Of a DNA stretch of 64,000 nt, positions 1,461 through 17,847 are shown one piece after another. The notes beneath the pieces were generated by a model. That model did no database searches. It was not told where the DNA came from and was given only the letters and a program-made list of their open reading frames with translations. The stretch comes from an uncultured Alistipes sp. Lineage in GTDB: Bacteria > Bacteroidota > Bacteroidia > Bacteroidales > Rikenellaceae. The translations under genes and the position numbers were made by a program. The stretch covers positions 40,112 through 104,111 of the forward strand of contig CANPHE010000001.1 in NCBI GenBank assembly GCA_947573795.1, read 5' to 3'. Numbering within the stretch: position 1 is the first letter of the stretch; every line of letters begins with the position of its first letter.

Positions 1461-1566
1461 GATATTTGTTTTAATGTTTCTGGTTTCTGCTGTTTTATCT
1501 GGTATCGCTCGCTAATAGTGAGCGCAAAATTAAGCAAAATCGGTTCTTTTGCAAAGAATAATAGGT

Positions 1567-1815
1567 ATGAAATCGGAGCTTGACAGATATGTGATCGCCC
1601 GTGTGCGCGAAAAGCGGTTGGAGCAAGGTGTTTCCCAGCGGGCAATCGCCTTTACCATCGGTCGCTCTGCCAGTTTTGTGGGGCAGGTCGAAAGCGACCG
1701 GTTCACTACCAAGTATACCGTTCATCAACTTTATCTGATCGCTAAGGACCTCGGATGTTCTCCTGCGGAGTTTTTCCCTCCGTTGGATGATCCCCGCTTC
1801 GAAAGCGAGGAATAA
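1567..1815 (+). CDS. XRE-family helix-turn-helix transcriptional regulator
   Basis: Track ORF 1549..1815, trimmed to the first ATG (1567) because 1549 is a TTG. The sequence RVREKRLEQGVSQRAIAFTIGRSASFVGQVES is a typical HTH_3/XRE motif. Confidence 0.8.
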   Translation: MKSELDRYVIARVREKRLEQGVSQRAIAFTIGRSASFVGQVESDRFTTKYTVHQLYLIAKDLGCSPAEFFPPLDDPRFESEE

Positions 1816-1947
1816 GCAGGGGACATTTCATAATTCCGGGTTGTTCAGATTTTACTCCTTGTTATTCGTTTGGATTCCCATTAACGGGAGGAAACTCTCC
1901 GGCACGTCCGGCATTTGTGGCATCGGGGTCGTCTGTTCGTTCTGTTC

Positions 1948-2730
1948 CTATAAATTACAAAAGGTATTCGGAGCCATTCCGGAGCCTTGGTCATACTCTA
2001 CAAAGGGATAAGAGGCGTAGAATTGTTCTTCCTCGATCTGTCGGAGCACGAAATCGGCAATGGTCAGCCGGGCGGCCAATGTCATATCGGTCGTCAGTTG
2101 TTCCGCCGCATTGCTTACCGTAGTGTCGATATCCTGTTCCTGCATGCGGTGGGCAATCGGCAGACTGGCGTCATAGAGACCGGAGGCAGGATACAGCGTT
2201 ACGGATCGTCCGCGTAGTGTCTCCATGATAGCAGGGTCGGTCAGGCTGTACCCGTTCCGATTGCTGTTTCCTGTTGCCAGCCAGAGCCGTTTGTTGTCGG
2301 CAAGGGTCATAATCAGGGCATCACGCGAATCACGCAGGATTCCGACGGGATCGTCGGGATATTCCTGCAACAGGTGCATCCCGAATAATGCCGGTGCGGG
2401 TTGCAGATCGTATCCTTTCATCAGTCGTTGGCCGATCGGTTGCTCGCCGGTCTGTTTGCCGGTTGCGGGGGCGTACTGCACCGAGAGCAGTTGCCGTGTC
2501 TTGCCGTCCTGAAAGGGGAAGGCAATGCCGTATAATCCGTCCTGTTCATACTCCAAGTCTACCAGCAGGCCGTAACGGGAAAATACGCGGCAGATGGCGT
2601 CCGTTGCGAAATAGCGGGACAGATAGGTAAACAGCGTCGTTCGTTCGTAATAATGTGTGTCGCCCAGCCGGGGGTTGCGAAGCCTGTCCCGGTGGATGAA
2701 GCGGGCGATGGGTTTATGGTTGTTTTTCAT
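1948..2730 (-). CDS. Hypothetical protein of the mobile-element replication module (possibly toprim/DUF6371-like; function not securely recognised)
   Basis: Track ORF 1948..2835, trimmed to the ATG at 2728-2730 (MKNNHKPIARF...). It is co-directional with and directly downstream of the DUF3987 gene, the usual position of a primase-like partner in Bacteroidales integrative elements. Confidence 0.55.
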   Translation of the reverse strand: MKNNHKPIARFIHRDRLRNPRLGDTHYYERTTLFTYLSRYFATDAICRVFSRYGLLVDLEYEQDGLYGIAFPFQDGKTRQLLSVQYAPATGKQTGEQPIGQRLMKGYDLQPAPALFGMHLLQEYPDDPVGILRDSRDALIMTLADNKRLWLATGNSNRNGYSLTDPAIMETLRGRSVTLYPASGLYDASLPIAHRMQEQDIDTTVSNAAEQLTTDMTLAARLTIADFVLRQIEEEQFYASYPFVEYDQGSGMAPNTFCNL

Positions 2731-2839
2731 GGTGTTGTGTTTTTTTGCACCGGCGGCTCCCGGCAGGCTCTCTTTCGGAGAGATAATTGCCATGTATTCA
2801 ACGGGAATTATCCGTAAGAGCCCGCCGTGCCGCAAGTGC

Positions 2840-4198
2840 TTATTCGAATATTTCTACATAATTTTTGCGGTACTCACCTTTGACGATGCGGGTAAAGTAG
2901 CGCTGCTTGCTTAAAAATTTCTTGACCTGATCCTTCGAGAATCCTACCTTTTTCTCTAACAGTTCGTAAACTGCGGCGATTCGGAACGAGGGCGGCAGTG
3001 CATCGTAGGCTTTGCGCTGCTGCTCTGTCATCGAGATACGGATATCCTTGCCGTAGACGAGCTTGTGAATCTTGATTGCCTCCTGCCGGAAATACTCCAC
3101 CAGTCGGATCGCCCCCTCGACCGAATCCATCCCGACCGCAACTGGCTCACGCTCTTCGAGGGCGGCCCGCATTACCTCCAAGATAAGAGCGAAACGCAGC
3201 GCATAGGTATCCAACTTACAACATGCGTCGGCGTAGGTGTCGCCCATCTCCTCCTGTGTCCGGGGCCGGTATTCGTCATTGTGCCACGATAGCATACGTT
3301 GCAGGGCTTCGGGAGTGAATTCGATCTCGGTAGGTTGCGGGATTCCATCGGCATCCTTTTCCATTTCACGGTCGAGCAGTCGTAGGATCGCTTTTTCATA
3401 CTGTTCGGTCAATGCGGGGTCGATCTCCGAGGCCGACCAGTTGGGCATGGTCAGGTTCTCCGGAGCGGTGAACAGAAAGCGCGAGGAGAATCCGCTACCG
3501 GCTTTGTCGCGCGTGAAGAATTTATGCATGATCGCCGTCTGCATCGTGCCGATGATAGACACGGCGACCCGATGGATGTAACGGGAATCGACCGAAGCCC
3601 GGTTGATCGACTGCGGAAGTCCCGACCAGATCGTATTGAACGCTTCGGCGTCGGAACCGGTGTTGTAGCGGTTCATGTTTTCCAGAAAACCGTTCATCTC
3701 GTCGGCTACGATCGCCACGCCGCGCGGGTTGGCTTCCATGCTCCGGTAGAGCGCTTCCAGCGTCAGTTCATTCAGGATCGGAGTACGCAGAACCGGTTTC
3801 GGGCCGGGGTTCCCTTCGGCTTTGCGACGTCGGTATTCGGCCATCTCCTTTTTGTAGGCAGCAAAACGCCGGGCGCGAATCAATTCGAACGGTGCGAATG
3901 CCCGTTGGATGGGATGGCTCTTGCAGGTTCCGGGATTGCCGACCAGCACACAGTTGAGCGAGGCGATTGCCGTAAAGAGGTTTTTCATTTTCAGTTGAAT
4001 CGTGCTTCCTATTGCCGCAGCAAAAGCCGTCAGTATTGCCGTGGCGCTGAAATCGACCGGAAATCCCAGATCGCGGTGCAGGGCAAGAATCAGTTCGGCC
4101 AGCGGGCGGGGAAAAACGTCCTCGAACGGAAATACATTTTGTTTCGCTCCGACAGCGGTAGTCTGAACCGCCGCCGGAGATTTTACAACCTGTTCCAT
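2840..4198 (-). CDS. DUF3987/VirE-like P-loop protein (mobile-element replication/helicase-like)
   Basis: Track ORF 2840..4513, trimmed to the ATG at 4196-4198 (MEQVVKSP...) because the extension overlaps the upstream HTH gene. The N-terminal FPFEDVFPRPLAELILALHRDLGFPVDFSATAILTAFAAAIG is a DUF3987-type signature. Walker-A-like GNPGTCKS and Walker-B-like VAIVADE are present. Confidence 0.8.
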   Translation of the reverse strand: MEQVVKSPAAVQTTAVGAKQNVFPFEDVFPRPLAELILALHRDLGFPVDFSATAILTAFAAAIGSTIQLKMKNLFTAIASLNCVLVGNPGTCKSHPIQRAFAPFELIRARRFAAYKKEMAEYRRRKAEGNPGPKPVLRTPILNELTLEALYRSMEANPRGVAIVADEMNGFLENMNRYNTGSDAEAFNTIWSGLPQSINRASVDSRYIHRVAVSIIGTMQTAIMHKFFTRDKAGSGFSSRFLFTAPENLTMPNWSASEIDPALTEQYEKAILRLLDREMEKDADGIPQPTEIEFTPEALQRMLSWHNDEYRPRTQEEMGDTYADACCKLDTYALRFALILEVMRAALEEREPVAVGMDSVEGAIRLVEYFRQEAIKIHKLVYGKDIRISMTEQQRKAYDALPPSFRIAAVYELLEKKVGFSKDQVKKFLSKQRYFTRIVKGEYRKNYVEIFE

Positions 4199-4203
4199 AG
4201 GGC

Positions 4204-4476
4204 CTATGCGTTTACGGGGATCATTGCCGCTTCGACATCGGACATCAGGAACAGGGTGCGTCTCCCGTTTTTCAGGCATCGGATCTCTCCCTGCCGTGTC
4301 ATTCGATGCAAAGTCGAATAACTGATGTGGAGCAGGTCGCAGACCTCCGAGCGGGAGAGGTAGCGATGTTCGGGCGGCTCCTTCATGCGGCGCAGTTCCG
4401 TAATCTCGGAGCGAAGCTCCTTCAGACAATCGTACAAGGCCGTGAGGTCGGCCTCCTGTAAAATCAAAGTTTTCAT
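4204..4476 (-). CDS. HTH_17 / excisionase-family DNA-binding protein
   Basis: Track ORF 4204..4551, trimmed to the ATG at 4474-4476 (MKTLILQ...). YLSRSEVCDLLHISYSTLHRMTRQGEIRCLKNGRRTLF is a MerR/excisionase-type HTH. Its stop is 5 nt upstream of the DUF3987 start. Confidence 0.8.
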   Translation of the reverse strand: MKTLILQEADLTALYDCLKELRSEITELRRMKEPPEHRYLSRSEVCDLLHISYSTLHRMTRQGEIRCLKNGRRTLFLMSDVEAAMIPVNA

Positions 4477-4587
4477 AATAAAAAAAATGTGGTTTACAGG
4501 TGCAAAGGAACAACCTGCCTCCGCCTCAGACACAATTTTGTGGTAGGACAAAAAAGAAGCGGGCGACCGTATGCCCGCTTCGTCTTG

Positions 4588-5571
4588 TCAGTTATCCGGC
4601 TGTATATCTTCTCGTTTGGCAATCATCGAAAGGCCTGCAATGTCCCATGCTCCGGTAAACTCCCGGCAGAAACGTTCGATCTTTTCCCGGCTGTCGGATC
4701 GTCCGTCCACCCGTCGCAGGAGGGATGCGACCATTTCCCGCGAATCGGTATAGTTGTCTATATCCGCATAACCGCACGTCGGGCCTCCCCGATGGCATTT
4801 GTCGATCAGTTTGCGGTAAACCTCCGGTGCGCCACCCCACAGCGAGGCCATAAGCGTTGCCGTGTGGGTGGCCCGCAGGTTGTTCAGGCCGAGCCGGTGC
4901 AACAGAAACAGTGTCAGAATTACCCGTTGCGTGTCGTTGATAGCGATTGTGCCCTTCCCGTATTTTCTGTCTGTGAACCGGGACAGGTGCGAGTTGATCT
5001 CCTCGCTTACACAATCGAAAACAGCGCTCGTATAGGCGTTCTTTATCCGGAGCTCCATATTCCGAAGCCGGGTTTGCAATTTTTCGACAGCGACGTGGAA
5101 TCCCTCCGTAAACCGGTCGTGTTGCCGGATGGTCGCATAAGCCCTTTTTCTCAGGGTGGCATAGAATACCGGATCGCAGAACAGGGCCGGTAGTGCCTGA
5201 CTGCATCGGATAAACACGTGATTCCGGTAAAATGTCCGGGCCTCGCCGTCTTCCGCCGGAATCAGTTTGTGCCGCCGGATTTCCTGTCCGGCAAGCAGAC
5301 GATAGCGTTGCAAGGCCGGAACGTCGGCGAAGAGATAGCCGCCGAAGATGGGATAGAGGTTGTTTGCTTCGGTAAAGCCCTGTTGCTGCCGATAGTCTGT
5401 TTCCCAATGCAGGAAGCAGGTGCAGAACAAGTCGGCAACAGACTGGGGCGTGGCTCGCTCCTCTTTGGCGATCAGGTCGAGGCCGAAGTCGAGCGCACAC
5501 AGATATTCGGCCATTTCAACGGCGTGTTCGAATGCGACGGGCCGTCCGTCGCGGGTCTCTATGGTGGTCAT
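4588..5571 (-). CDS. Hypothetical protein (327 aa) between integrase and excisionase-like gene; no domain recognised
   Basis: Track ORF 4588..5766, trimmed to the ATG at 5569-5571 (MTTIETRDGRP...), 8 nt downstream of the integrase stop. Amino-acid composition looks protein-like, unlike the overlapping R/P-rich alternative frames. Confidence 0.65.
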   Translation of the reverse strand: MTTIETRDGRPVAFEHAVEMAEYLCALDFGLDLIAKEERATPQSVADLFCTCFLHWETDYRQQQGFTEANNLYPIFGGYLFADVPALQRYRLLAGQEIRRHKLIPAEDGEARTFYRNHVFIRCSQALPALFCDPVFYATLRKRAYATIRQHDRFTEGFHVAVEKLQTRLRNMELRIKNAYTSAVFDCVSEEINSHLSRFTDRKYGKGTIAINDTQRVILTLFLLHRLGLNNLRATHTATLMASLWGGAPEVYRKLIDKCHRGGPTCGYADIDNYTDSREMVASLLRRVDGRSDSREKIERFCREFTGAWDIAGLSMIAKREDIQPDN

Positions 5572-5579
5572 GGGTTGTC

Positions 5580-7094
5580 TCAGTTGAAAAATTTGTATTG
5601 TTTGAGTGCGACCGCCTTTTCCTCGGCGGTGCAACGGATATAGCGTCGGAAATTGGCCTCGGTCGTGTTGCCGGTTGCCGACATGATAAGTGCTGCGGGA
5701 ATATCGTTCTTGAAAGCATTTGTGGCAAATGAACGGCGTGCCGTGTGGGTCGTTACGAGGTCGCATTTCTCGTAACAGCGTATCTGCCGTTCTCCGCCCA
5801 ATACCTCTGTCAGATAGACCTTGGAGGTAATGCCCGCCTTACGGCATAGCTGTTTAAGCATCCGGTTCGTTGCCTGATTGCTTTGTGTCGGCGGCGGACA
5901 GTTGTTGTAACGGGCGAAGATGCTGCGCAGTTTCGGGCAGATCGGCACAGCGATCGTCCGGTTCGTTTTCTGGGTCGTGATGACGATGATTCCTTCGTCG
6001 AAACGGATGTGGTGCGGTTGCAGCCGTCCGATGTCGCTGAACCGCAGTCCGGTGTAACAGCCGACCAGAAATGCGTCGCGCACCTCGGCCTGCGAGGGCG
6101 GCAATTCCAGATCATAAAGCAGTTGCAGTTCATCTTCATTCAGGTAGATGGTTTCGACCGTTTCCTGAAAAACCTTGAATTCGCGGCGCTTGAAATCGGA
6201 GTTGAGCGTATAGTTGTTGTCGAACGCGTAACGCAGGAACGTGCGGATATTCTTCACGAATTTGCCGATTACATTCGGACGGTAGCGGCCCCGGCTGTGG
6301 GTCGTCTCGTTCAGATATTTGACGAAGTCGTTGTAGAAATCCAACGTCAGCGATTCCAGCGTCAGCCGGATGTGCCGCGCTTCGGCATAACGGCGCAGGG
6401 CACTTTTGGTCGATAGGTAGCTGCGGATCGTGCCGGGCGTCAGGCGTGTGCCCGCGCCGTTGAGGATGGTCCCCTCCCGGCAGGCGTTGATGTAAAAGTC
6501 GATGTATTCGAATACGTCGCGGAATGTCCGGGCCTTGCTTGCCTCTTGTCCGAGCTCGCATTGCAGTTCGTTGCGTACCTGATCCGCCGAGGCACGGATG
6601 CCCTGTTGCTGGAAGCGGGCGAGAACAGCCAGTACGGCGTTGGTGATCTTGTCGATCTCGGTGTTGATGTTGTCGAGCCGGACACGCAGACGGGGATTGC
6701 CTTTCAGATCGGCATTCCGTTTCGAATCGACGATCGCACGGCCCTCCGTGCTATCCCAATGTTTCGGCTCAATTTTGAACGTCGGAGCAAGGGCATAGGA
6801 GATGCGGACGTGGTTGATGGTCATACGCATCCGGACCGAGGTAAGCGGCTGTGCCGGATTTTTCAGAGAGAAGCGGATCATCCGGCGGGTATAGAGGTCT
6901 TGTTTCTGACGCATGGTCATTCGATTGAATGGTTTCTGCGTACTTTTTTCAAGGGTCGTTCCTTGCAGTTGCCACGTCTTGTCGCAGTCCGGGTGATTTG
7001 TCCGCAGTAGCTCCTGCGGTATGACGTCGGCGTCAGATGCTGACGTCAGGCATGTCAGGTCGTTGATGTTGTAAATGATTTCCGGTTTCTTCAT
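5580..7094 (-). CDS. Tyrosine site-specific integrase (Bacteroidales integrative-element type)
   Basis: 504-aa ORF. It has an Arm-type N-terminal region (VRMRMTINHVRISYALAPTFKIEPKHWDSTEGRA), a SAM-like core-binding region and a catalytic domain with TGLRFSDI and the HTARRSFATN (H-x-x-R) motif. The true start may be an internal Met (MTMRQKQ or MIRFS). Confidence 0.9.
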   Translation of the reverse strand: MKKPEIIYNINDLTCLTSASDADVIPQELLRTNHPDCDKTWQLQGTTLEKSTQKPFNRMTMRQKQDLYTRRMIRFSLKNPAQPLTSVRMRMTINHVRISYALAPTFKIEPKHWDSTEGRAIVDSKRNADLKGNPRLRVRLDNINTEIDKITNAVLAVLARFQQQGIRASADQVRNELQCELGQEASKARTFRDVFEYIDFYINACREGTILNGAGTRLTPGTIRSYLSTKSALRRYAEARHIRLTLESLTLDFYNDFVKYLNETTHSRGRYRPNVIGKFVKNIRTFLRYAFDNNYTLNSDFKRREFKVFQETVETIYLNEDELQLLYDLELPPSQAEVRDAFLVGCYTGLRFSDIGRLQPHHIRFDEGIIVITTQKTNRTIAVPICPKLRSIFARYNNCPPPTQSNQATNRMLKQLCRKAGITSKVYLTEVLGGERQIRCYEKCDLVTTHTARRSFATNAFKNDIPAALIMSATGNTTEANFRRYIRCTAEEKAVALKQYKFFN

Positions 7095-7146
7095 AATGGC
7101 TTTCGTTTGGCACGCTGCTCCACAAAAGCCGCACCTTTGCGTCTGC

Positions 7147-7314
7147 CATTTGACATTTGTCAGTCATCGAATATCCCTGAAAAAGTTCTCCAGCCCCGGA
7201 CTGTCCGAAGCTGGAGAATCGTAAAATTTTTTCTGAAAAATTCCATGATATTTGACAAAACAAAATTTGTCAGGCATTTTGTCAGAAACCGGGTGCCGGA
7301 GTTTGACACAAAGA
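7147..7314. promoter_or_regulatory. Cluster of TTTGACA / TTTGTCAG motifs (three each) just upstream of the integrase 5' end; candidate recombinase/regulator binding sites
   Basis: The region reads catTTGACAtTTGTCAGtc (7147-7168), atatTTGACAaaacaaaatTTGTCAGgcatTTTGTCAGaaac (about 7249-7292) and gagTTTGACAcaaag (about 7300-7314). Two of these form TGACA-N-TGTCA inverted pairs. Confidence 0.4.
7186..7232. terminator. Hairpin (9-bp stem) flanked by A/T runs; candidate bidirectional terminator between the phosphoesterase gene and the integrase
   Basis: The arms are ttctccagc (7186-7194) and gctggagaa (7210-7218), with a 15-nt loop. The hairpin is preceded by gaaaaag and followed by aaaatttttt. 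Confidence 0.4.
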
Positions 7315-7334
7315 CGGTTTCTTCGGAGGTTTTA

Positions 7335-7937
7335 TTATATCGTAATAACGACAGGATGATTGACCAGTTCGTAATTCTCATTCACAACAGCACCGTTCAC
7401 AAAGGTTGTCCGGGATGTTTTATATACGCCGTATGCCTCGTGTGTATGGCCGAACAAATGGTAGCGAGGGTTGATAATTTCTACTTGCTTCCGTAAATCT
7501 TCATTCCCCATATTTGCGCCGAATGCTGATTTATCAAGAATTCCGAACGGCGGACAATGCGAAACCAGTATGTCGGTCTGTTGAGGAATCCGGACGATCT
7601 TTTCCGGATAGAGGTCTGCCCAGTGGATTTCGTCGGATAGAAAGAACGGGATTCCCCATATTTTCACACCTTCGATTTCTATACCGCTGTTGCATAGATA
7701 GTAGCAGTTATGCGGCATCCCTTCGATACCGGCTCCATCCAAACAATCGTCATGATTGCCTGCGATAAAGATTTTGTACCGGTAATTCAATTTCCCGAAC
7801 CATTCAATAAAATCGGTAATCTCCTCCTCCGTCCCGTTCCACGACAAGTCCCCTGCATGGATCAACATATCGGCCTGCGGCAGATTCTTCAACTCACAGT
7901 GTTTTCCATGCGTGTCGGATAGAAAGGCGATTGTCAT
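7335..7937 (-). CDS. Small calcineurin-like metallophosphoesterase (YfcE/MJ0936-like)
   Basis: 200-aa ORF with the full MPP motif set: LSDTHGKH, HAGDLS, AGNHDD, VSHCPP, GHTHE. Confidence 0.85.
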   Translation of the reverse strand: MTIAFLSDTHGKHCELKNLPQADMLIHAGDLSWNGTEEEITDFIEWFGKLNYRYKIFIAGNHDDCLDGAGIEGMPHNCYYLCNSGIEIEGVKIWGIPFFLSDEIHWADLYPEKIVRIPQQTDILVSHCPPFGILDKSAFGANMGNEDLRKQVEIINPRYHLFGHTHEAYGVYKTSRTTFVNGAVVNENYELVNHPVVITI

Positions 7938-8140
7938 TCTTGATAAGTGATTCGTTTTAGAGAATCGGTTTATAATGCGAACGATAATTTTGATGATTCG
8001 TTGCGAAAATCGGAACGGGTGTATTTTCTTATATCTTCATCTTACAGAGGGGTAATCATCGAAAGATGTAATCTTCTTTAATATTTTGAAAATTCATATT
8101 CTTTTCAAGGCTCATTTCTTCTTGACCTAACTTATTTTAG

Positions 8141-8181
8141 GATAAAAATAGGGTATGAAAATTTTTCAAAATTTCATACCC
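8141..8181 (-). terminator. Rho-independent terminator of the three-gene AT-rich operon
   Basis: The stem pairs gggtatgaaat (8151-8161) with atttcataccc (8171-8181). On the minus strand it is followed by tatttttatc. It lies about 75 nt downstream of the RES gene stop. Confidence 0.55.
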
Positions 8182-8257
8182 TAAGATTGGGCAAGAACGA
8201 CTATCAAAATGACATAATCCCTTTACGATCTGATATTTTAATTTATGGGCATTGTTA

Positions 8258-9313
8258 TCATCCTTTATTGGATTCTTTTATGCTGGCATATTCCATGTCG
8301 ATTTTGTTAATTTCTACTGTTTTCGCATTTTTAAATTGGAATTTTTGATCGTCGAAAAAAGCATAATTTATTCCCCCTGTATGCATTGCACTCGCGTATT
8401 CAACTCCATGCACTTTTAATGAGGATTTAATGTACTCACAAAGATATTGAGTTGGCAGGTACTCTAAATCAGAGTCAGTTTTACGCAATGGTTTGGATAG
8501 AGCCTCTCTAAAATGATTAAGAATAGTTTTATTTGTTACATACTCTTGCAAGTTGATGTCTTCAATAAACGGGCTGATATTGTGAATATCATTTAATGAT
8601 ACAATAATAATATCTTCTACAAGTTCAAATTCTCCAATGCAAACATAATCTAAAAAAGATGCTCTAACCTCAAATAATGTTGTTTTGGGATCACTCGCAA
8701 GATACAAGTATGATATACCTTGAGGATTAGCTCGTCCTGAAGTTGTCTTTTGATAAGGTGGTTTACCTAAGTCAGATGCAGGATTAGAGAACCCATTTAT
8801 ATTATCACATATTCGAGCCCGGAAAAAAGATGTCCCTGCCTTTAATGTTTTGGTGTGTTTTTGCAATAGCTTGCTAACGATGTCACGGACAATTGCGTTG
8901 TTGTTGATGAAAAATCTATTAGTGCATTTAATTTCATTAACAAAATCTTGCCATATTTTATCGGAGTCGCTAGTCCCATCAAATTTTTCCTTAACGTGTT
9001 CTCCTTTTAGACTCTTATCAAGATAGTCAATTAACAGGTAATTTGTAATCGATTTTGCTATATCATCATTTGCGAAAATATTCCATTCTTTTTGTATTGT
9101 CGTGCTTAGACAATCTGCCACTGGATTATCCGTTTCTTCATACAAATCAAATAGCGGAACAAAGTAATCTAACAAATCCTCAATATCGACAATCGGTACA
9201 TTTTTTTGGTAACAGCAATTGCACGTTCCTATATTGCCTCGTGATAGGTCTTTGATAATCGGTTGTATTTCTACATCAACAAAACAATTCGGACAACAAG
9301 TCATTCTTGGCAT
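8258..9313 (-). CDS. RES-domain protein with N-terminal Cys-cluster (zinc-ribbon-like) and a middle region of unknown function; predicted NAD+-targeting effector
   Basis: 351-aa ORF. The RES signature is in canonical order: TSFFRAR (R165/R167), GRANPQGISYLYLASDPKTTLFEVR (E215), YLPTQYLCEYIK, GVEYASAMHTGGINYAFF (S308). The N-terminus has C6, C7, C10 and C31, C33, C34 (CCPNC...CNCC). The start is 1 nt after the upstream gene stop. Confidence 0.9.
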   Translation of the reverse strand: MPRMTCCPNCFVDVEIQPIIKDLSRGNIGTCNCCYQKNVPIVDIEDLLDYFVPLFDLYEETDNPVADCLSTTIQKEWNIFANDDIAKSITNYLLIDYLDKSLKGEHVKEKFDGTSDSDKIWQDFVNEIKCTNRFFINNNAIVRDIVSKLLQKHTKTLKAGTSFFRARICDNINGFSNPASDLGKPPYQKTTSGRANPQGISYLYLASDPKTTLFEVRASFLDYVCIGEFELVEDIIIVSLNDIHNISPFIEDINLQEYVTNKTILNHFREALSKPLRKTDSDLEYLPTQYLCEYIKSSLKVHGVEYASAMHTGGINYAFFDDQKFQFKNAKTVEINKIDMEYASIKESNKG

Positions 9314-9314
9314 T

Positions 9315-10268
9315 TTATTTCGTTGAAAAATGATTGTAAACTAATTGTAGGTGATTTAAAATAGATAATTTTTTAATACTACCTAAACCGGGATAGGATT
9401 CATCATGGTATATTTGTCTCAATTGTTGACAGGCATCTGTATTCATTTTTCGTTCGTCAATAAATGGAACTAACTTTGATAATGCCTCTGCAACTTTACC
9501 TGGAACATCTGAGTTGTCATCATTGCTGTCTGAAACAAAATGGTGAATCCGAAAAACATTGTCTGGAGAATCCAGGTATGTCAAATGGACTGCAACCGCA
9601 TAGGGCAAAAATCCACCTTCGCTATAATTATTCCCTATCGTTACATAATCTCCATATCCAGAATAGCCTTCTGATTCAAAAAATAAATGATCGTCACTAA
9701 AGAACTCATCGGCTGGATTTGCATAATCTGCATTCTTTTCTTTTGAGTTAAATCGATCCGCCAATATAACTAACTCGGTCCCTAGTGGTCTAATATTTCG
9801 GGATAATCGTCTAATAGTACTATCGTCGTATAAAATTGCATATTTAATAGATGTAGAGTTTAACAACTCTTTAAAATCTAATTCGTTTCTTGGCTGATCG
9901 GTTATTACCAATGAAATATTTTCTAGATTATAGTCCTTGATAAAGGATATTATTCGCTTCAGATTAACCTGCTCGTTGATAATAAATGTCGGCTGGTAGT
10001 TGTCATACTCTTTTAATTTATCGATAATGTTGTTTATTAAATTATCATATTTTTCAGATGATATTTCTCCGCATTTAGGGTTCAAAATAATGTTGAAATT
10101 GACACCATTTTGTACTAAAGAATCTATTGTTTTTAGTAATGTAGAGTTAACTTGTTTGATCGGTTCAATGATGGGAGATATAATATCCTTTTGCTTATAG
10201 AAGGAACACATATCCCTTAATGCAATCAATTCAAATTGTTTCCCTCTCAAATACGGAAAATATTTCAT
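9315..10268 (-). CDS. sce7725-like / Beta-protein (PF14350-like) family protein
   Basis: 317-aa ORF starting MKYFPYLRGKQFELIALRD. From memory, this N-terminal motif is diagnostic of proteins annotated 'sce7725 family protein' and resembles Beta_protein family members. An HMM check is needed. Confidence 0.8.
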   Translation of the reverse strand: MKYFPYLRGKQFELIALRDMCSFYKQKDIISPIIEPIKQVNSTLLKTIDSLVQNGVNFNIILNPKCGEISSEKYDNLINNIIDKLKEYDNYQPTFIINEQVNLKRIISFIKDYNLENISLVITDQPRNELDFKELLNSTSIKYAILYDDSTIRRLSRNIRPLGTELVILADRFNSKEKNADYANPADEFFSDDHLFFESEGYSGYGDYVTIGNNYSEGGFLPYAVAVHLTYLDSPDNVFRIHHFVSDSNDDNSDVPGKVAEALSKLVPFIDERKMNTDACQQLRQIYHDESYPGLGSIKKLSILNHLQLVYNHFSTK

Positions 10269-10280
10269 GACGTTGTGGTT

Positions 10281-11150
10281 TTAGATGCTTTCCAATTGTA
10301 TATTCAATACGCTCTCAAATCGGTCATAATACTCTGCTTTAAAATCAAGATTCCAAAACAGGTACTTAAACTCAGGAGGGACAATGGTGTCTGATTTGAA
10401 TAAATCCTTTTCCTTAATCGAGCGTTTCTTTAATTCAATAACGACCAAATCATGCAATGCGCAAACAGGGATTTCATGGAATCTTTCCTTGCATATGGAA
10501 AAATATTTGACCGGCGTTGTCTGCGGAATTTCTCCAAAATAACTTTGAAGTACATTCGTATACTCCTGTTTACGCAAACTCCTAATTATTACAGAACTAT
10601 CTAAATGGGCTATATCTTTTTGAGCCTCTCGAATGGTATGTAAAGCTCCTTTATCAGTTAAAGTAATAATACCAACTTTGTCGTCTATTTCTTTTGAAAG
10701 TTTCTCTACTAAATCCGCGTGCGTTACAACATATATATGCTCAAATACTTTTTTGTAATCTGCAATTTGACTTTCTAAACGATAAAGATTATCCAATTCT
10801 GTCTTTATTTCAAATACTTTGCTCGTACCATTCAACAAAACTAAATCCGCTATCGAACGGCCTATCTTAAATTCGTTAAGAATCGTGGTGGTATTCAAAC
10901 TATATTTGGCCAATAGCAATTTGTTTATGATAGAATTTTTATAGACATATTCGTTACGATATTCTTTTAAAAGCTTTCTATAGGCATATCTGTAAAACTC
11001 TCCAAGGGTATGAATAGATGAATCTTCGACCCCGTATTTCCTATATTTGGCTAATACGTACGAGTAATCATTCTCCACCAATAATTGCAGGAACTTACTG
11101 GTGGAGAATAAATTTGCATAACAGCGAAATATGGTTTTTTCTATAGGCAT
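10281..11150 (-). CDS. sce7726-like protein with PD-(D/E)xK nuclease-fold motif
   Basis: 289-aa ORF. ILNEFKIGRSIADLVLLNGTSKVFEIKTELD supplies E93...D102...E114-x-K116, a classical restriction-endonuclease-like core. From memory, its position directly upstream of the sce7725-like gene matches the sce7726/sce7725 pairing. Confidence 0.8.
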   Translation of the reverse strand: MPIEKTIFRCYANLFSTSKFLQLLVENDYSYVLAKYRKYGVEDSSIHTLGEFYRYAYRKLLKEYRNEYVYKNSIINKLLLAKYSLNTTTILNEFKIGRSIADLVLLNGTSKVFEIKTELDNLYRLESQIADYKKVFEHIYVVTHADLVEKLSKEIDDKVGIITLTDKGALHTIREAQKDIAHLDSSVIIRSLRKQEYTNVLQSYFGEIPQTTPVKYFSICKERFHEIPVCALHDLVVIELKKRSIKEKDLFKSDTIVPPEFKYLFWNLDFKAEYYDRFESVLNIQLESI

Positions 11151-11161
11151 GCAAAAAATTC

Positions 11162-11180
11162 CAAATATACAACAAATATA
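11162..11180 (-). promoter_or_regulatory. Two candidate Bacteroidota -7 boxes (TAnnTTTG) upstream of the operon
   Basis: Minus-strand TATATTTG occurs at 11162-11169 and again at 11173-11180, that is 12-30 nt upstream of the ATG at 11150. No clear -33 TTTG was seen. Confidence 0.35.
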
Positions 11181-11429
11181 GTGAATAAATTCGAATCCCT
11201 ATCACATAGAGAAATATATGCCTTAATATCCTTCCACGATAGCCTGCAGCGCAAATTAACAAGAAAGGACAAAGGATCCACTATAGTGCCCGAATAACAG
11301 CCACAATATAACGCTTCAAAATTTCAAATGAAACATATTTCTGCAAATAGCTGAAAAGACAAGTGTTACGAGAGAGCAGGATAGACTATTAACGGTCTAA
11401 TTTAGTGGGCGCTTCAGACCTCCCAATTG

Positions 11430-11465
11430 AAAAAGCAGTCGACCGAGCGGTCGACTGCTTTTTCG
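11430..11465. terminator. Perfect 14-bp hairpin flanked by A-run and T-run (bidirectional terminator) at the right edge of the AT-rich island
   Basis: The sequence is aaaagcagtcgacc-gagc-ggtcgactgctttt (11431-11462). Confidence 0.6.
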
Positions 11466-11530
11466 TTTTTCTCAAATAGGTGTGTTCCGGGGTGCGAATC
11501 CTTCGGCTCGCGCGGCAATCGCGGATTTTT

Positions 11531-11558
11531 GAAAAAAACGGAGCGGAAATATTCCGCT
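11531..11558 (-). terminator. Terminator downstream of the esterase / ECF-sigma operon
   Basis: The stem pairs agcggaa (11542-11548) with ttccgct (11552-11558). On the minus strand it is followed by a T7 run (the complement of gaaaaaaac at 11531-11539). Confidence 0.5.
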
Positions 11559-11613
11559 GCCGTGATTTCGGGCCGTGCGAAATTGCGAAGGTCTTAGGCC
11601 GCTGCATGGCCGC

Positions 11614-12369
11614 TCAATGTCCGAATACCCAGTTCAGACGTGCGTCGGTATAGCTTTGGGTACAAGTTTGTTCATGCGTCCATCCCTCCTGCGTTTCGAG
11701 CACGGCCTCTCCGCCGGATTCGACGAGTTTCTCCACGAACTGGCTTACGAGGCCGATATCCATGATTCGATCGGAGCTTCCCATAACCGTGAGCACCGGC
11801 GTTCCGGAGACATTTTCGATCCGGCAGCCCGACGGGTTCCCGGCTACGGGCATCGCTGCGGCAAATAGGCCCGGGTAGGCGGACAGCATGCTCCAAGTTC
11901 CGGTTCCGCCCATAGACCCTCCCAAAATGTAGATGCGTTCGGCCTCGGCCTCGCCCTGGAGGATATGCCCGTCGATCAATGCTTTCAGCACGTCGTTCAT
12001 CGCCCCGCCCCACGATCGCTCTTTCGGACATTGGGGCACGATAACGACGGCGGCGATACGCTGTGCGGCCAGATAGCTGCTTATCGCGCGTACGCCCGGC
12101 TCCTGCACCGGGCGCTCGTTGTCCGCACCCTTGCTTGTGCCGCCGTGCAGATAGAGTACCAGGGCGGTTTTCCCCCGTTCGTTTCCCGCTGCGATGACGG
12201 CTTTGCGGTAGGGTATGACGAGGCCCGAATAATTCCCGGATTCCCGGGTGAATACGATCTGCTCGGTCGTCGGTCCGTCGGCTTCCGGCTTCGGAGTCGC
12301 CGCATCCTCTTTCGAGCACGATGCGGCGACCCACGATGTCAACGCCAACAGCAGCATTCCGCATTTCAT
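11614..12369 (-). CDS. Alpha/beta-hydrolase family esterase lipoprotein
   Basis: 251 aa. It has a lipoprotein signal (LLALTSWVAASC), a GGSMGG nucleophile elbow (GxSxG) and LYLHGG. Its start overlaps the upstream stop in ATGA (12366-12369). Confidence 0.85.
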   Translation of the reverse strand: MKCGMLLLALTSWVAASCSKEDAATPKPEADGPTTEQIVFTRESGNYSGLVIPYRKAVIAAGNERGKTALVLYLHGGTSKGADNERPVQEPGVRAISSYLAAQRIAAVVIVPQCPKERSWGGAMNDVLKALIDGHILQGEAEAERIYILGGSMGGTGTWSMLSAYPGLFAAAMPVAGNPSGCRIENVSGTPVLTVMGSSDRIMDIGLVSQFVEKLVESGGEAVLETQEGWTHEQTCTQSYTDARLNWVFGH

Positions 12370-12839
12370 TTCCCGGGGCGGCTTATTCCGTTTCGGTTCC
12401 CGTTATCGGGATGCTTCGACAAACGATGCATCATCTGCCGTTCCAGTTCGTATACCCGCTTGATTTGTTTGGGGCGGAGCTTCTCGCTGTATTCCTCGTA
12501 GTATTTTTGTCGGATGTCCAGGATTTTGCGGCTGCGTTCGAAGCGGGCTTTCAACTCCTGTTCCGTCTGAGCTTCCGTTTCGGTCGCGGCATTTCGAGGC
12601 GCGCCTTTGCCGGCTCGCGGTCCGAGGGCCCAAATCTCTTTTTGACACCGGCAGAAGGTCTCGATGAACCATTCGGTGACGGAGGTGTCCAGCGCCAGTG
12701 CTTCGGCGATATGCCGGGCCTGCTTCTCGGCCAGTTGTTCGCGCGTCAGGCGCTGTCGGTCGTTGTTTTGGGCGTTTGCCGCCCCGCAGCAAACCGTCAG
12801 GGCGACGGCAAGCATGCATACGCTAAAAAAACGTTTCAT
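12366..12839 (-). CDS. Secreted hypothetical protein (coiled, E/K/R-rich; periplasmic partner in the ECF operon)
   Basis: 157 aa with signal peptide MKRFFSVCMLAVALTVCCGAANAQ. It is translationally coupled to the esterase gene. Confidence 0.7.
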   Translation of the reverse strand: MKRFFSVCMLAVALTVCCGAANAQNNDRQRLTREQLAEKQARHIAEALALDTSVTEWFIETFCRCQKEIWALGPRAGKGAPRNAATETEAQTEQELKARFERSRKILDIRQKYYEEYSEKLRPKQIKRVYELERQMMHRLSKHPDNGNRNGISRPGK

Positions 12840-12851
12840 AATGGTTGGATT

Positions 12852-13184
12852 TTATGGATTGATGAATAGGTCGTCCCGATAGACCGAAAGCAGATAGGTG
12901 CGATCCTCCGTACTGAGGTCGTCGAAGGCCCGTTCCACCTCGGCAAATTCTGCCGAAGGGATGCTCTCGGGGGCTTTGTCGAGGAGAAAAACCACCGCTA
13001 TGGCTGCCGCGGCCGTCGTTACGGCGCCCAGTGCGAGGCGCAGGAATCTTCGGCTTTTTTGAACTGCGGTTTCCCGACGGTCCAGTTCCCGAAGGATGTC
13101 CTCCTCCATTTGTTCGAAGAATCCGTCGGGTACGGTGTAGGGCATCCGTTTCCCGGGCCGGTCGAAATCGAAATCGGTTTTCAT
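12852..13184 (-). CDS. Putative anti-sigma factor (single-pass membrane protein)
   Basis: 110 aa with one hydrophobic span (LRLALGAVTTAAAAIAVVFLL). It lies 12 nt downstream of the ECF sigma gene. Confidence 0.6.
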   Translation of the reverse strand: MKTDFDFDRPGKRMPYTVPDGFFEQMEEDILRELDRRETAVQKSRRFLRLALGAVTTAAAAIAVVFLLDKAPESIPSAEFAEVERAFDDLSTEDRTYLLSVYRDDLFINP

Positions 13185-13196
13185 AGCTGTTCCTTT

Positions 13197-13733
13197 TCAG
13201 TCGTGCGAGTTCATGTATCGTATGATCTTCTCTTTGGCCAGATGGTAATTGGCTTTTGCCGCGCAAACCGTGGAATTAGTCGCCTCGGCGATCTCTTCGT
13301 AAGTCAGCTCGTCGTAGTAGCGCAGGCTGAATACGATCCGCTGCTTGGTCGGAAGCGACAGCAGGGCGTTTTGCAGCCGGACCGCCTCCAAGTCGCCGTA
13401 ATCTACGTAGGTGTCGGCTCGCGCGCCTGCGGCAGCGGCGTCCGCCGTCAGCGAGAGCCGTTCTTCGCGGTGGCGGCTCAGAATGCGCAATGCCTCGCGG
13501 GTCGCGATCCGGTAGATCCATGCGGTGAGCGAGCCGCGTGCATCGAACCGTCCGAAAGCACGGAATATCCGTACGAAGGTCTCCTGCGCAGCGTCCTGGG
13601 CATCCGCATGGACCGCGACGAGCCGGCGGATGTGCCAATAGACCGGCTCCTTGTAAGCCGCCATCAGCAGTCGAAAGCCCCGGTCGGGATGTGTTTTCAT
13701 CGCAAGGATGATCTCCTGGTCTTTTCCGGACAT
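13197..13733 (-). CDS. ECF-type RNA polymerase sigma-70 family factor
   Basis: 178 aa with a region-2-like segment (DAQDAAQETFVRIFRAFGRF) and a region-4 HTH (SLRYYDELTYEEIAEATNSTVCAAKANYHLAKEKI). Confidence 0.9.
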   Translation of the reverse strand: MSGKDQEIILAMKTHPDRGFRLLMAAYKEPVYWHIRRLVAVHADAQDAAQETFVRIFRAFGRFDARGSLTAWIYRIATREALRILSRHREERLSLTADAAAAGARADTYVDYGDLEAVRLQNALLSLPTKQRIVFSLRYYDELTYEEIAEATNSTVCAAKANYHLAKEKIIRYMNSHD

Positions 13734-13749
13734 GGTGCGACGCGAATTT

Positions 13750-14139
13750 TTATTGCAGGGTATAGGTCTTCTTCTTTCGCTCCGTGACAGTCAGCGTGAT
13801 CGGGTTGTCCGGATCGAAGGCGAAAGCATCGAGTTCGGCTTCGGCCGCGTCTTTCGGCAGTCCGGCCATTTTCGCATATTTCCCGACGGCGAGAGACGGG
13901 TTTTGCCGAAGATACGCAAGTGCCATTTCGAGCCGACCTTTTCGGTCGAAGCGGTTGCTGATGCGCAGCGCGATCGCCGGTCTTACCGGCGTGACAAGAA
14001 TCCGGTGCGGATACGGGCCGTGGCAATGCGGATAGAAATCGCGGCTGCGGTAGCGGTCGTGCAGCCGGGCGTCGGCCGAGCCGCAGTGTAGCAGGCAGAT
14101 CGCCGCTATAGTTCCTGTTTTCCGGAATAATGCGTTCAT
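13750..14139 (-). CDS. Hypothetical protein upstream of the sigma gene; start uncertain (may be only the C-terminal ~58 aa from MALAYLRQ)
   Basis: Track ORF 13750..14175, trimmed to the ATG at 14137-14139. The N-terminal half is H/C/R-rich and less protein-like. Confidence 0.4.
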   Translation of the reverse strand: MNALFRKTGTIAAICLLHCGSADARLHDRYRSRDFYPHCHGPYPHRILVTPVRPAIALRISNRFDRKGRLEMALAYLRQNPSLAVGKYAKMAGLPKDAAEAELDAFAFDPDNPITLTVTERKKKTYTLQ

Positions 14140-14344
14140 GGTTCCAAAGTTAGGTGATACATCGTTGTCGAGCAAACCGTTTTCGGGGCCGCTTTCTGTA
14201 TCTAAAACCCCGTCGGAGGGTGAAAGTCAAATGCAGGCGTGCATTTTTTTTCTTGCGGCGGCTCTCTGCCGGCTTCCTGTGGAAGGGGTTTTGCAGGATA
14301 TGATTTTCTGTTATCGGAATAACAGGAAAACCGAAATATTTTCG

Positions 14345-14352
14345 TAAATTTG
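14345..14352 (+). promoter_or_regulatory. Candidate -7 box (TAAATTTG) for pgk
   Basis: It matches the Bacteroidota TAnnTTTG consensus and lies 58 nt upstream of the pgk ATG. Confidence 0.35.
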
Positions 14353-14409
14353 CCGCGTGCTGGTTTCAGAATGAGTTTGTTTCCTATAAATAATTAAAAA
14401 TCAAAAGCT

Positions 14410-15672
14410 ATGATTTCGATCGACAACTACGATTTCAAAGGCAAACGCGCGATCATCCGCGTGGATTTCAACGTGCCCGTGGATGAGCAGGGCAACGTGA
14501 CGGACGACACGCGCATCCGTGCCGCCATGCCCACGATCAAGAAGGTGCTCGCCGAAGGCGGTGCCGTGATTCTCATGTCGCACATGGGACGTCCCAAGAA
14601 GAATCCCGATCCCAAATATTCGCTCGAGCAGATCATTCCGGCTATCGAGAAGAATCTCGGCGTGAAGGTCGAGTTCGCCGGCGACTGCATGGGTGAGAAG
14701 GCTGCCGAGATGTGCAAGAACATCAAGCCCGGTGAGGTCGTGCTGCTCGAGAACCTGCGTTTCTACGCCGAGGAGGAGGGCAAGCCCCGCGGTCTGGCCG
14801 CCGATGCCACGAAGGAGGAGAAGGACGCCGCCAAGAAGGCCCTGAAAGAGGGCCCGCAGAAGGAATTCGTCGCCAAGCTGGCTTCGTATGCCGACTGCTA
14901 CATCAACGACGCGTTCGGTACGGCGCACCGCAAGCACGCTTCGACCTATCTGATCGCCAAGGCGTTCCCCAATGACAAGATGTTCGGTTACCTGATGGAG
15001 AAGGAGGTCAAGGCGATCTCGACCCTGATGGAGGCTCCGGCACATCCGTTCTGCGCCATCGTCGGCGGTTCGAAGGTTTCGTCGAAGATCGGCGTCATCA
15101 AGGCGCTGATCGAGAAGGTCGATTCGATCATCATCGGCGGCGGTATGACCTATACGTTCGCTGCCGCTCAGGGCGGTAAGGTCGGCAATTCGATCTGCGA
15201 GCCCGACATGTTCCCCGTGGCGCTGGAGATCTTGGAGCTCGCCAAGCAGAAGGGCGTGCAGTTAGTCATGTCGCCCGACGCACTGATCGCCGACGCCTTC
15301 TCGGCCGATGCCAACACCTCGACGGCTCCCGCCAACGACATTCCCGAGGGTTGGGAAGGCGTGGATATCGCCGACGAGGGCAAGAAAGCCTTCCGCGAGC
15401 ATATCCTCGGCTGCAAGACGATTCTGTGGAACGGCCCCGTGGGCGTGTTCGAGATCGACAAGTTCGCTACGGGTTCCAAGGAGGTGGCGCTGGCTATCGC
15501 CGAGGCTACGAAGAACGGCGCCTACTCGCTCATCGGCGGCGGCGACTCGGTGGCCTGCGTCAACAAATTCGGCCTGGCCGATCAGGTATCCTACATCTCG
15601 ACCGGCGGCGGTGCTCTGCTCGAATACATCGAGTTCGGTACGCTGCCCGGTGTGGAGGCGATCGCCAAATAA
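14410..15672 (+). CDS. pgk: Phosphoglycerate kinase
   Basis: 420 aa. Diagnostic motifs are [22 protein letters not shown] and GGGDSVA. Confidence 0.97.
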
Positions 15673-15696
15673 TTCGGTGCGAGCCGGTAATAGACG

Positions 15697-15729
15697 CGGG
15701 GTTCCGATTGCTCGGAACCCCGTTTTTTT
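15697..15729 (+). terminator. Rho-independent terminator after pgk
   Basis: The stem pairs cggggttccg (15697-15706) with cggaaccccg (15713-15722), followed by a T7 run. Confidence 0.7.
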
Positions 15730-15800
15730 CGGGGTTCGGACCCGGATGAACGAAGGCGCGCGAAAACCGGAGTCTTCGCGCGCCTGTGCTTCGCAGCGGA

Positions 15801-17816: not shown

Positions 17817-17847
17817 AGGAGGATCAGGTATTTGCGTTTTGGTTGAA

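Follow-up and report, generated by a model that had tools for sequence, protein, structure and literature searches.

A compact, low-G+C operon of three genes

We analysed a 64,000-nucleotide (nt) stretch of DNA from an uncultured Alistipes sp. (contig CANPHE010000001.1, positions 40,112 to 104,111 of the forward strand; hereafter the window), and we focus here on an operon of three minus-strand genes within it, which encode an sce7726-like, an sce7725-like and a RES-domain protein and which we call genes 1, 2 and 3, or together the triad (coordinates in Table 1). A preliminary description, made from the letters of the sequence, had singled out these genes as a candidate anti-phage or abortive-infection system. 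The list of open reading frames (ORFs) reproduces the three genes and their spacers, which as annotated are 12 nt between genes 1 and 2 and 1 nt between genes 2 and 3. Because the relatives of gene 3 begin MNCC or MTCC, its true start is probably M4, and the second spacer would then be 10 nt.

The three genes stand out from their surroundings in composition, with a G+C content of 0.337 (gene 1), 0.322 (gene 2) and 0.340 (gene 3) against 0.581 for the window and 0.605 for positions 11600-64000. The contrast that had been described is thus real, and only the accompanying genome estimate of 60-65% was slightly high. The step in G+C falls between 11001-11500 and 11501-12000 and coincides with the hairpin at 11428-11465, which closes the neighbouring host gene at 11614-12369 and marks the boundary between the high-GC host DNA and the low-GC insert. 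The genes lie under one putative promoter and one terminator, and both of the shared elements that the preliminary description had proposed could be located. A regex scan puts the two copies of the motif TATATTTG on the minus strand 10-30 nt ahead of the gene 1 start codon, one with its 5' end at 11180 and the other at 11169; a promoter role is suggested by the known Bacteroides -7 consensus. The terminator hairpin downstream of gene 3 folds at -15.9 kcal/mol (z = -4.8), and 0 of 200 shuffled sequences fold equally well. A scan of positions 6900-11800 against Rfam returned no RNA families. At profile E-values of 1e-54 (gene 1), 2e-88 (gene 2) and 1e-13 (gene 3), chance is excluded for the family matches that are described below.

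Gene 3 is a distant relative of the aRES proteins

Gene 3 matches the Pfam RES family with 51.8 bits (cut-off 23.2, E 1.2e-13). The RES signature that had been read from its sequence (R165/R167, E215 and S308) is invariant in 41 members of the gene 3 family, as is R194, which lies within a GRANPxGI motif and was absent from the earlier account. Among the same 41 members, conservation reaches at least 90% for five cysteines of the N-terminal region (C6, C7, C10, C31 and C34). An architecture of Zn-ribbon, HEPN/RES-NTD1 and RES was noted by Anantharaman et al. 2013 (PMC3710099), and gene 3 agrees with it. Taken alone, gene 3 stays below threshold against HEPN_RES_NTD1 in hmmscan (E 0.27); many of its relatives carry PF08808 and PF18870 together, with PF18870 present in about 40% of the relatives listed, and the RES protein of a triad from Moraxella matches PF18870 at 9.8e-5.

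This combination of domains has recently been used to delimit a family of defence proteins, aRES, defined as proteins of 300-600 amino acids (aa) with RES and PF18870, the latter accepted at an HHsearch probability >80% (Osterman et al., Sorek laboratory, bioRxiv January 2026, 10.64898/2026.01.28.702374; the methods print 'PF00808' for the RES family PF08808). In that study three enterobacterial aRES, which convert NAD+ to nicotinamide and ADP-ribose-1''-phosphate (ADPR-1''-P), were shown to protect E. coli in this way, active-site mutations abolish the defence, and aRES members are non-toxic alone and respond to phage (10.64898/2026.01.28.702374). We compared gene 3 with the validated sequences given in Table S4 of the preprint. 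By BLASTP it aligns with the E. coli UC5 aRES over aa 7-308 at 23% identity (E 8e-13), with the FxRAR, GRxNxxGI, EVR and final S positions in agreement, and the gene 3 family profile aligns with the K. pneumoniae aRES in hhalign at 99.6% (E 2.3e-24, 316 columns), from residue 2 through the RES domain. With its 351 aa and a Pfam RES match above the cut-off, gene 3 falls within the size and RES limits of the aRES definition, and it falls within the HEPN/RES-NTD1 limit through its family profile. The two thus share HEPN/RES-NTD1 and RES domains with an N-terminal CxxC...CxxC, homology over the full length, and the R, E, S and GRxN positions. Judged by architecture and homology, gene 3 is a distant member of the aRES family and a predicted NAD+ phosphorylase. 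The earlier suggestion that gene 3 encodes an NAD+-depleting effector is strengthened by this full-length homology to proteins shown to act by NAD+ phosphorolysis, although for gene 3 itself the activity remains a prediction.

There are also differences. The aRES studied so far are stand-alone proteins, 'not operonically associated', whereas gene 3 is the third gene of an obligate triad, and the validated proteins are longer than 399 aa, compared with 351 aa and an identity of only about 23% for gene 3. We do not regard the operon as aRES as described, because it is not stand-alone. The two sets of loci nevertheless seem to overlap: Winogradskyella jejuensis DSM 25330, which carries one of our triad loci (L036), is in the preprint's list of aRES genomes, and from this match at the level of the genome triad RES genes appear to have been counted there as stand-alone aRES.

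Gene 1 is a homologue of P4 cII, and gene 2 is probably a remote relative of P4 beta

Genes 1 and 2, 12 nt apart, both score above the curated NCBIfam cut-offs of their families, gene 1 against sce7726_fam (NF033832; 185.1 bits, cut-off 70, E 1.1e-54) and gene 2 against sce7725_fam (NF033831; 296.9 bits, cut-off 60, E 2.3e-88), which bears out the naming of gene 1 as sce7726-like. Gene 1 also matches the PADLOC 'cll' model of the gop-beta-cII system of satellite P4 (7.7e-21) and P4 cII itself by BLASTP (29% identity, E 5e-14), a protein that RefSeq in turn annotates as 'sce7726 family protein'. Relatives of gene 1 carry Pfam PF26915, named Phage_P4_cII; gene 1 gave no Pfam match because PF26915 is absent from the Pfam version scanned. 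The restriction-endonuclease-fold core proposed earlier (E93...D102...E114-x-K116) is well founded: all four residues are invariant in 37 family members, and the AlphaFold2 (AF2) model (pLDDT 95) places them in a strand-strand-strand-helix-strand core made of strands 89-96, 99-106 and 110-116, helix 122-133 and strand 138-143. The best Foldseek match in the PDB is 3dnx (7e-5), followed by AF1548 (1y88), SfsA, NucS/EndoMS and the nuclease domains of Can2/Card1. The predicted structure and motif agree with what defines the PD-(D/E)xK superfamily, an alpha-beta-beta-beta-alpha-beta core with an E/D...D...(D/E)xK motif; going by the model, the fold assignment holds, and gene 1 is a predicted nuclease. 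Gene 1 proteins of the co-directional type found in the triad also carry an N-terminal helical extension of ~60 aa (aa 1-64 in gene 1) that P4-type cII proteins do not have, and the NCBIfam match accordingly begins at aa 61-73 in the former and at aa 4 in the cII of Pasteurella phage Pmp11. This extension could be an interface to the RES or the TIM-barrel-like partner.

The N-terminus of gene 2, MKYFPYLRGKQFELIAL, had been taken as a hallmark of the sce7725 and Beta_protein families. Residues Y3, P5, R8, K10, Q11, E13 and L14 of this segment are invariant, as are a further set of polar residues (E35, N63, H194, D207, H228, H243, K258, K299, K300 and H306), and so many invariant polar positions suggest that gene 2 is an enzyme or a ligand-binding protein. 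Its AF2 model (pLDDT 90.5) has alternating beta and alpha elements that form a divergent, (beta/alpha)8 TIM-barrel-like fold. In the PDB, Foldseek found generic matches only, at a TM-score of about 0.4 (TrpA, GH84, aldolases and the nucleotide-binding barrel SmbA), and a specific enzymatic assignment is therefore not possible. A far better match than any in the PDB came from BFVD, where gene 2 comes closest to a 379-aa protein of Gordonia phage Powerball (E 3.5e-9, TM 0.67), uncharacterised and Beta-like in length. As a whole the sce7725 family is of modest size: 1.84 billion representatives yielded 1,537 clusters at 50% identity, the best 150 of which are 249-333 aa long, with one matched stretch apiece.

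The sce7725 half of the hallmark thus stands, and the Beta_protein half does so only at a distance. Gene 2 has no match at E <= 1 to Pfam Beta_protein (PF14350) or to the PADLOC 'beta' model, and pairwise BLASTP against P4 beta aligns the N-terminal motif alone (E 0.007). Profile-profile comparison of sce7725 with Beta in hhalign gave 66% with small alignments; a larger set of 93 sce7725 and 7 Beta sequences raised this to 81% (E 1.3e-5, over 234 columns), and in this alignment the YxPxLR...E..AL and YGD motifs are in register. Beta_protein is also the Pfam family most often touched by the gene 2 family (5 of 37 members, all sub-threshold, best E 0.028). A third result points the same way: sce7725 and Beta genes alike come paired with a gene of the sce7726/cII family. 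The Beta family proved too divergent to be enlarged by a pattern search of viral contigs, and Pasteurella phage Pmp11 was the sole addition from the phage collection. Remote homology between gene 2 and P4 beta is probable, if not proven. The suggested link of the operon to P4 gop-beta-cII is real; its strongest leg is gene 1, with its match to cII, rather than, as had been assumed, gene 2, which is related to beta only remotely.

The three genes stay together across phyla

A pattern scan for gene 2 in one genome per GTDB species found 333 genomes with a relative, the best 80 of which (39-89% identity) were examined for their surroundings. All 80 loci have a gene 1 homologue directly upstream of gene 2, and 78 have a gene 3 homologue directly after it; in the remaining two the contig stops ~0.5 kb past gene 2. 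Order and strand are constant in the 78 loci with complete context (78/78), and in 77 of these the spacer between genes 2 and 3 is between -4 and +14 nt, mostly an ATGA-type overlap or 1-2 nt. The hosts of the 80 loci are mostly Bacteroidota, with a few from other phyla.

At about 30% identity, the triad is also found in Alpha-, Beta- and Gammaproteobacteria, on plasmids and on an integrative and conjugative element (ICE). Plasmids of Shinella, Moraxella and Rhizobium carry it under the NCBI names sce7726, sce7725 and 'RES family NAD+ phosphorylase', a Ralstonia megaplasmid and a human-gut contig carry it too, and on the Salmonella houtenae ICE it adjoins an integrase and a caspase-like protease. 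More distant RES relatives (34-39% identity) are likewise in triads, one of which adjoins AbiH. Among 2.9 million viral contigs, the triad occurs in 18 loci, mostly copies of a single contig of ~73-82 kb. The coupling of the sce7726/sce7725 pair to a toxic type of effector, which the preliminary description had proposed as a check, is accordingly conserved throughout the loci with complete context.

A few loci with only part of the triad deserve mention in their own right. The viral contig IMGVR_UViG_3300028954_000021 (L115, 260-3560) has a P4-type integrase (PRK09692-like, 4.6e-81), then sce7726, sce7725 and a terminator, an arrangement that represents either a two-gene form of the module or the loss of an effector. 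On E. faecium plasmid p114-2 (L082, 3303-5510), sce7725 is followed by a 170-aa GNAT acetyltransferase in place of RES, and the gene upstream of sce7725 is not recognisable as sce7726; a 'Listeria phage' contig (L101) has the same arrangement. The latter two may represent an alternative partner set in Firmicutes.

The operon is cargo of a small integrative element

Downstream of the triad lie a gene for a calcineurin-like metallophosphoesterase, matching the PADLOC candidate PDC-S10, and a tyrosine integrase (Table 1). The integrase reported to lie next door is therefore present, and it is separated from the triad by the 200-aa metallophosphoesterase gene. The rest of a small integrative element, mapped from locus L096, extends over about 1-7094 on the minus strand at a G+C of about 0.54, and it also includes an HTH_3 repressor and a MORN-repeat protein. 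The longest ORF at 4588-5766 overlaps the integrase 3' end by 186 nt, which is an artefact; other assemblies start this gene later, giving 331 aa. An identical RES protein occurs on many gut-metagenome contigs in the same context, in the order host genes (PGK, sigma-70 factor and peptidase-like gene), triad, PDC-S10, integrase, 331-aa gene, HTH_17, DUF3987, DUF6371 and HTH_3. As cargo of low G+C, the triad and PDC-S10 occupy the integrase end of this element, in the style of a satellite defence hotspot, and by analogy the position may parallel that of gop-beta-cII beside int in P4. No tRNA was found in positions 1-20000, and att-type direct repeats were short and at chance level; the ends of the element are undefined for these reasons.

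The PDC-S10 gene forms its own transcription unit between the triad terminator and the integrase. The Metis defence system uses a calcineurin-like domain as its NADase (MisA); no HAD-phosphatase partner was seen at the PDC-S10 locus, and the gene may be a second, independent defence cargo gene. We considered and rejected it as a component of the triad, given its position past the terminator and the place of Metallophos outside the 25 commonest Pfam families among 144 immediate neighbours of triads. These neighbours, surveyed as counts per family, include at 76 other triad loci RteC (6), integrases (4) and a scatter of DpdF, AbiEi, PsyrT, RT systems and PDC candidates. Counts of this kind speak modestly for a mobile or defence setting, and the expectation that homologues would be enriched near mobile or defence genes holds to that extent, with RteC, integrases and Abi genes on one side and many housekeeping neighbours on the other.

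Table 1. Genes, domains and signals of the operon and its surroundings, in window coordinates (aa, protein coordinates).
Feature	Position	Strand	Description	Basis
Gene 1	10281-11150	minus	289 aa	ORF list
Gene 1 layout			N-terminal helical extension ~60 aa; predicted PD-(D/E)xK core about aa 89-175; C-terminal helical region	
Gene 2	9315-10268	minus	317 aa	ORF list
Gene 3	8258-9313	minus	351 aa as annotated; M4 at 9304 is probably the true start (348 aa)	ORF list
Gene 3 domains			Zn-ribbon CxxC...CxxC aa 7-34; HEPN/RES-NTD1 about aa 28-138; RES about aa 160-330	
Putative promoter	11161..11180	minus	Bacteroidetes-type, two tandem TAnnTTTG (-7-like) motifs, TATATTTG x2	sequence read and regex scan
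Intrinsic terminator	about 8140..8183	minus	12-bp stem GGGUAUGAAAUU / AAUUUUCAUACCC, then U-run UAUUUUUAU	RNA fold
Terminator-like hairpin	11428..11465	.	strong, bidirectional, 17 bp	terminator scan
Calcineurin-like metallophosphoesterase	7335-7937	minus	200 aa; G+C 0.46	PADLOC candidate PDC-S10 1.2e-76
Tyrosine integrase	5580-7094	minus		Pfam Phage_integrase 1.9e-11
Element gene	about 4576-5571	minus	331 aa	mapped from L096
HTH_17 gene	about 4192-4464	minus	excisionase-like	mapped from L096
DUF3987 gene	about 2828-4186	minus	primase-like	mapped from L096
DUF6371 gene	about 1936-2781	minus		mapped from L096

Relation to known defence and toxin-antitoxin systems

In satellite P4, gop-beta-cII protects against lambda and P1 and behaves like a toxin-antitoxin (TA) system, with Gop being toxic when beta is missing (Rousset et al. 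2022, PMC9122126), and it is triggered to kill by phage orf184 (10.1101/2023.04.06.535777). The triad resembles this system (DefenseFinder/PADLOC 'gop_beta_cll') in several ways: gene 1 is a clear cII homologue with E...D...ExK in both, the N-terminal YxPxLR...E..AL motif of beta and a YGD motif are also in gene 2, and each is a three-gene module adjoining the integrase of a small integrative element. It differs in its third component, since Gop is a small membrane toxin of about 130 aa whereas gene 3 encodes a 351-aa Zn-ribbon/NTD1/RES protein; gene 3 does not resemble Gop, and the operon contains no small ORF of the Gop kind. It also differs in that gene 2 falls short of the Beta_protein and PADLOC 'beta' models, in that only gene 1 carries the N-terminal extension, and in layout, which in P4-type loci is gop, beta and a convergent cII and in the window is co-directional with the cII-like gene first. 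With no Gop, a different layout and a beta relation below threshold, we do not place the operon within Gop-beta-cII.

Other P4-type loci put this difference in perspective. Beta_protein genes on plasmids of Azospirillum, Neorhizobium, Sinorhizobium, P. putida and Persicobacter, and in Pasteurella phage Pmp11, all have a cII-type gene after them that runs towards beta, as in P4; five of these cII-type genes are sce7726 by name or score, and those of Neorhizobium (5e-14) and Persicobacter (1.1e-07) are linked to gene 1 by phmmer. What lies upstream of beta varies, being Gop-like in Pmp11, a protein of 341 or 352 aa in two of the plasmids, and an M78 peptidase with a 229-aa protein in Persicobacter. 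Because the gene upstream of beta differs among these loci, the cII/beta-type pair is constant and the third component variable, and the window represents a second, co-directional layout with a predicted aRES-type NADase as the third component. The Pmp11 module (L122, 2601-4893) is a complete P4-type set of gop-like, beta and convergent cII-like genes, all annotated as hypothetical proteins, and sits directly after the CI repressor of this temperate phage, a typical moron position.

The RES-Xre, MbcTA and NatRT type II TA systems share with the triad a RES catalytic domain and presumably NAD+ phosphorolysis. They consist of two genes rather than three, and the RES protein of the triad has a large Zn-ribbon and NTD1 region, whereas TA RES toxins are ~150-200 aa long and lack large N-terminal Zn-ribbon and NTD1 domains. 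No match to an Xre/MbcA/ParS (DUF2384) antitoxin was found for genes 1 and 2 in Pfam or NCBIfam.

A proposed mechanism and its alternatives

With moderate confidence, we read the operon as a three-component anti-phage abortive-infection system, carried as horizontally acquired cargo of a small integrative element. Apart from the homologies, the strict linkage of the three genes, the recurrence of the triad in distant bacteria and its mobile, low-G+C setting count in favour of this reading. From the homologies set out above we infer that gene 3 would be the effector and, once activated, would phosphorolyse NAD+ to nicotinamide and ADPR-1''-P, such that loss of NAD+ would arrest the infected cell and starve the phage. 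Genes 1 and 2 would act as a sensing and gating module, whereby the RES enzyme is kept off in uninfected cells and is released or activated on infection. How the two might share this task we can suggest only loosely: by analogy with beta, which neutralises Gop in P4, gene 2 may restrain or otherwise control the RES protein, and gene 1, whose nuclease motif is intact, may recognise or process a nucleic-acid cue. Just as plausibly, genes 1 and 2 would switch on an auto-inhibited gene 3 instead of neutralising it, since stand-alone aRES are self-controlled. In evolutionary terms, the triad could be a Gop-beta-cII-type system in which an NADase stands in for the membrane toxin Gop or, equally, an aRES that has taken on two obligate partners.

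Several observations weigh against this proposal. At the viral locus with a P4-type integrase (L115), neither a RES gene nor a remnant of one accompanies the sce7726/sce7725 pair, the immediate neighbours of triads are often housekeeping genes, and the beta/sce7725 homology lies under curated thresholds. Some RES domains are ADP-ribosyltransferases of the ParT type, so the chemistry of gene 3 is not certain. Its identity to validated aRES is only about 23%, and the PDB gave no meaningful match to it, with the single sequence or with the family profile, which is why its catalytic residues were compared with aRES sequences rather than with MbcT or NatT structures. The validated aRES, moreover, act alone and are described as non-operonic (10.64898/2026.01.28.702374), and RES activation may do without genes 1 and 2, or these may be a system of their own.

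This last point can be extended into a different account of the locus, namely that a self-sufficient aRES (gene 3) travels together with a two-gene nuclease-based defence or DNA-processing module (genes 1 and 2). That validated aRES act alone speaks for it, as do the pair without RES beside the P4-type integrase and sce7725 with GNAT on the E. faecium plasmid. We think it unlikely, because independent neighbours would have shuffled, whereas co-occurrence is 78/78, in a fixed order and with overlaps or 1-2 nt spacers, across phyla and at identities as low as about 27-30%; that the three genes share a putative promoter and a terminator argues in the same direction. Similarly improbable in our view, though of a different kind, is a plasmid or ICE addiction module in which a RES toxin and one or two neutralising partners cause post-segregational killing, with phage defence as a side effect at most. 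RES domains are classical TA toxins, NCBI names the relatives 'RES family NAD+ phosphorylase', the triad occurs on plasmids, an ICE and integrative elements, and P4 gop/beta is itself TA-like (PMC9122126), all of which fit such a module. However, an antitoxin domain of the Xre/MbcA/ParS type is absent from both partners, gene 3 belongs by architecture with the aRES, which are non-toxic by themselves and phage-responsive, and a three-gene module of ~2.9 kb with an intact nuclease motif would be atypical; TA and abortive-infection roles are, in any case, compatible with each other.

Less probable still is that the nuclease of gene 1 is the primary effector, acting on phage or host DNA, with the RES protein as an ADP-ribosyltransferase or a regulator rather than a bulk NADase. 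The invariant E...D...ExK of gene 1 points to catalysis and its fold matches the nucleases SfsA, NucS and Can2, while some RES toxins (ParT) ADP-ribosylate proteins, which counts on the same side. Yet the closest characterised relatives of gene 3 degrade NAD+ to ADPR-1''-P, and the toxic component in P4 is Gop, not cII. We also considered a metabolic or repair operon and rejected it, as an insert of 33% G+C, a mobile-element location and a patchy distribution across phyla do not fit such a role.

Returning to the three-component system, we find it tempting to speculate further that cII-like and beta/sce7725-like proteins constitute an ancient, portable two-protein sensor and gating cassette that is wired to interchangeable killing modules, a generalisation that we regard as tentative and, on balance, somewhat doubtful. 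The killing modules may include Gop in P4 and Pmp11, the ~340-350-aa proteins or the M78 peptidase in P4-type plasmids, and the aRES-type NADase in the triad. The GNAT protein of the Enterococcus locus, which has sce7725 and no recognisable cII-like gene, may be a further one.

Novelty and implications

Full-text literature searches on sce7725/sce7726, gop-beta-cII, PF18870/PF14350 and RES with defence found no paper that describes the triad, and the PADLOC library of hidden Markov models (v2.0.0, 2023) matched gene 1 only, with no model for genes 2 and 3. The novelty suggested for this operon thus holds in that we found no name for the triad, and is tempered by its parts: it is a hybrid variant, with cII and RES parts that are homologous to components of validated defence systems and a third part that is probably a remote beta homologue. 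The individual parts would not surprise a specialist; it is their conserved coupling that is useful.

The parent systems are mechanistically open, both in the biochemistry of P4 cII and beta and in how aRES sense infection. A cII/beta-type pair coupled to a measurable output (NAD+ loss and ADPR-1''-P) would offer a tractable read-out of sensing and gating by the pair and of aRES control. Some of the aRES genes counted as stand-alone may belong to three-gene systems, which would affect estimates of their prevalence and the search for their triggers and for phage inhibitors. The triad spans Bacteroidota and Proteobacteria, including gut Alistipes, and current defence-finding tools probably miss it. 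If the idea of a portable cassette should prove true, the triad would be an unrecognised, phylum-spanning defence family, in which aRES-type NADases are placed under external control, possibly via a small-molecule step that is catalysed or sensed by the TIM-barrel protein.

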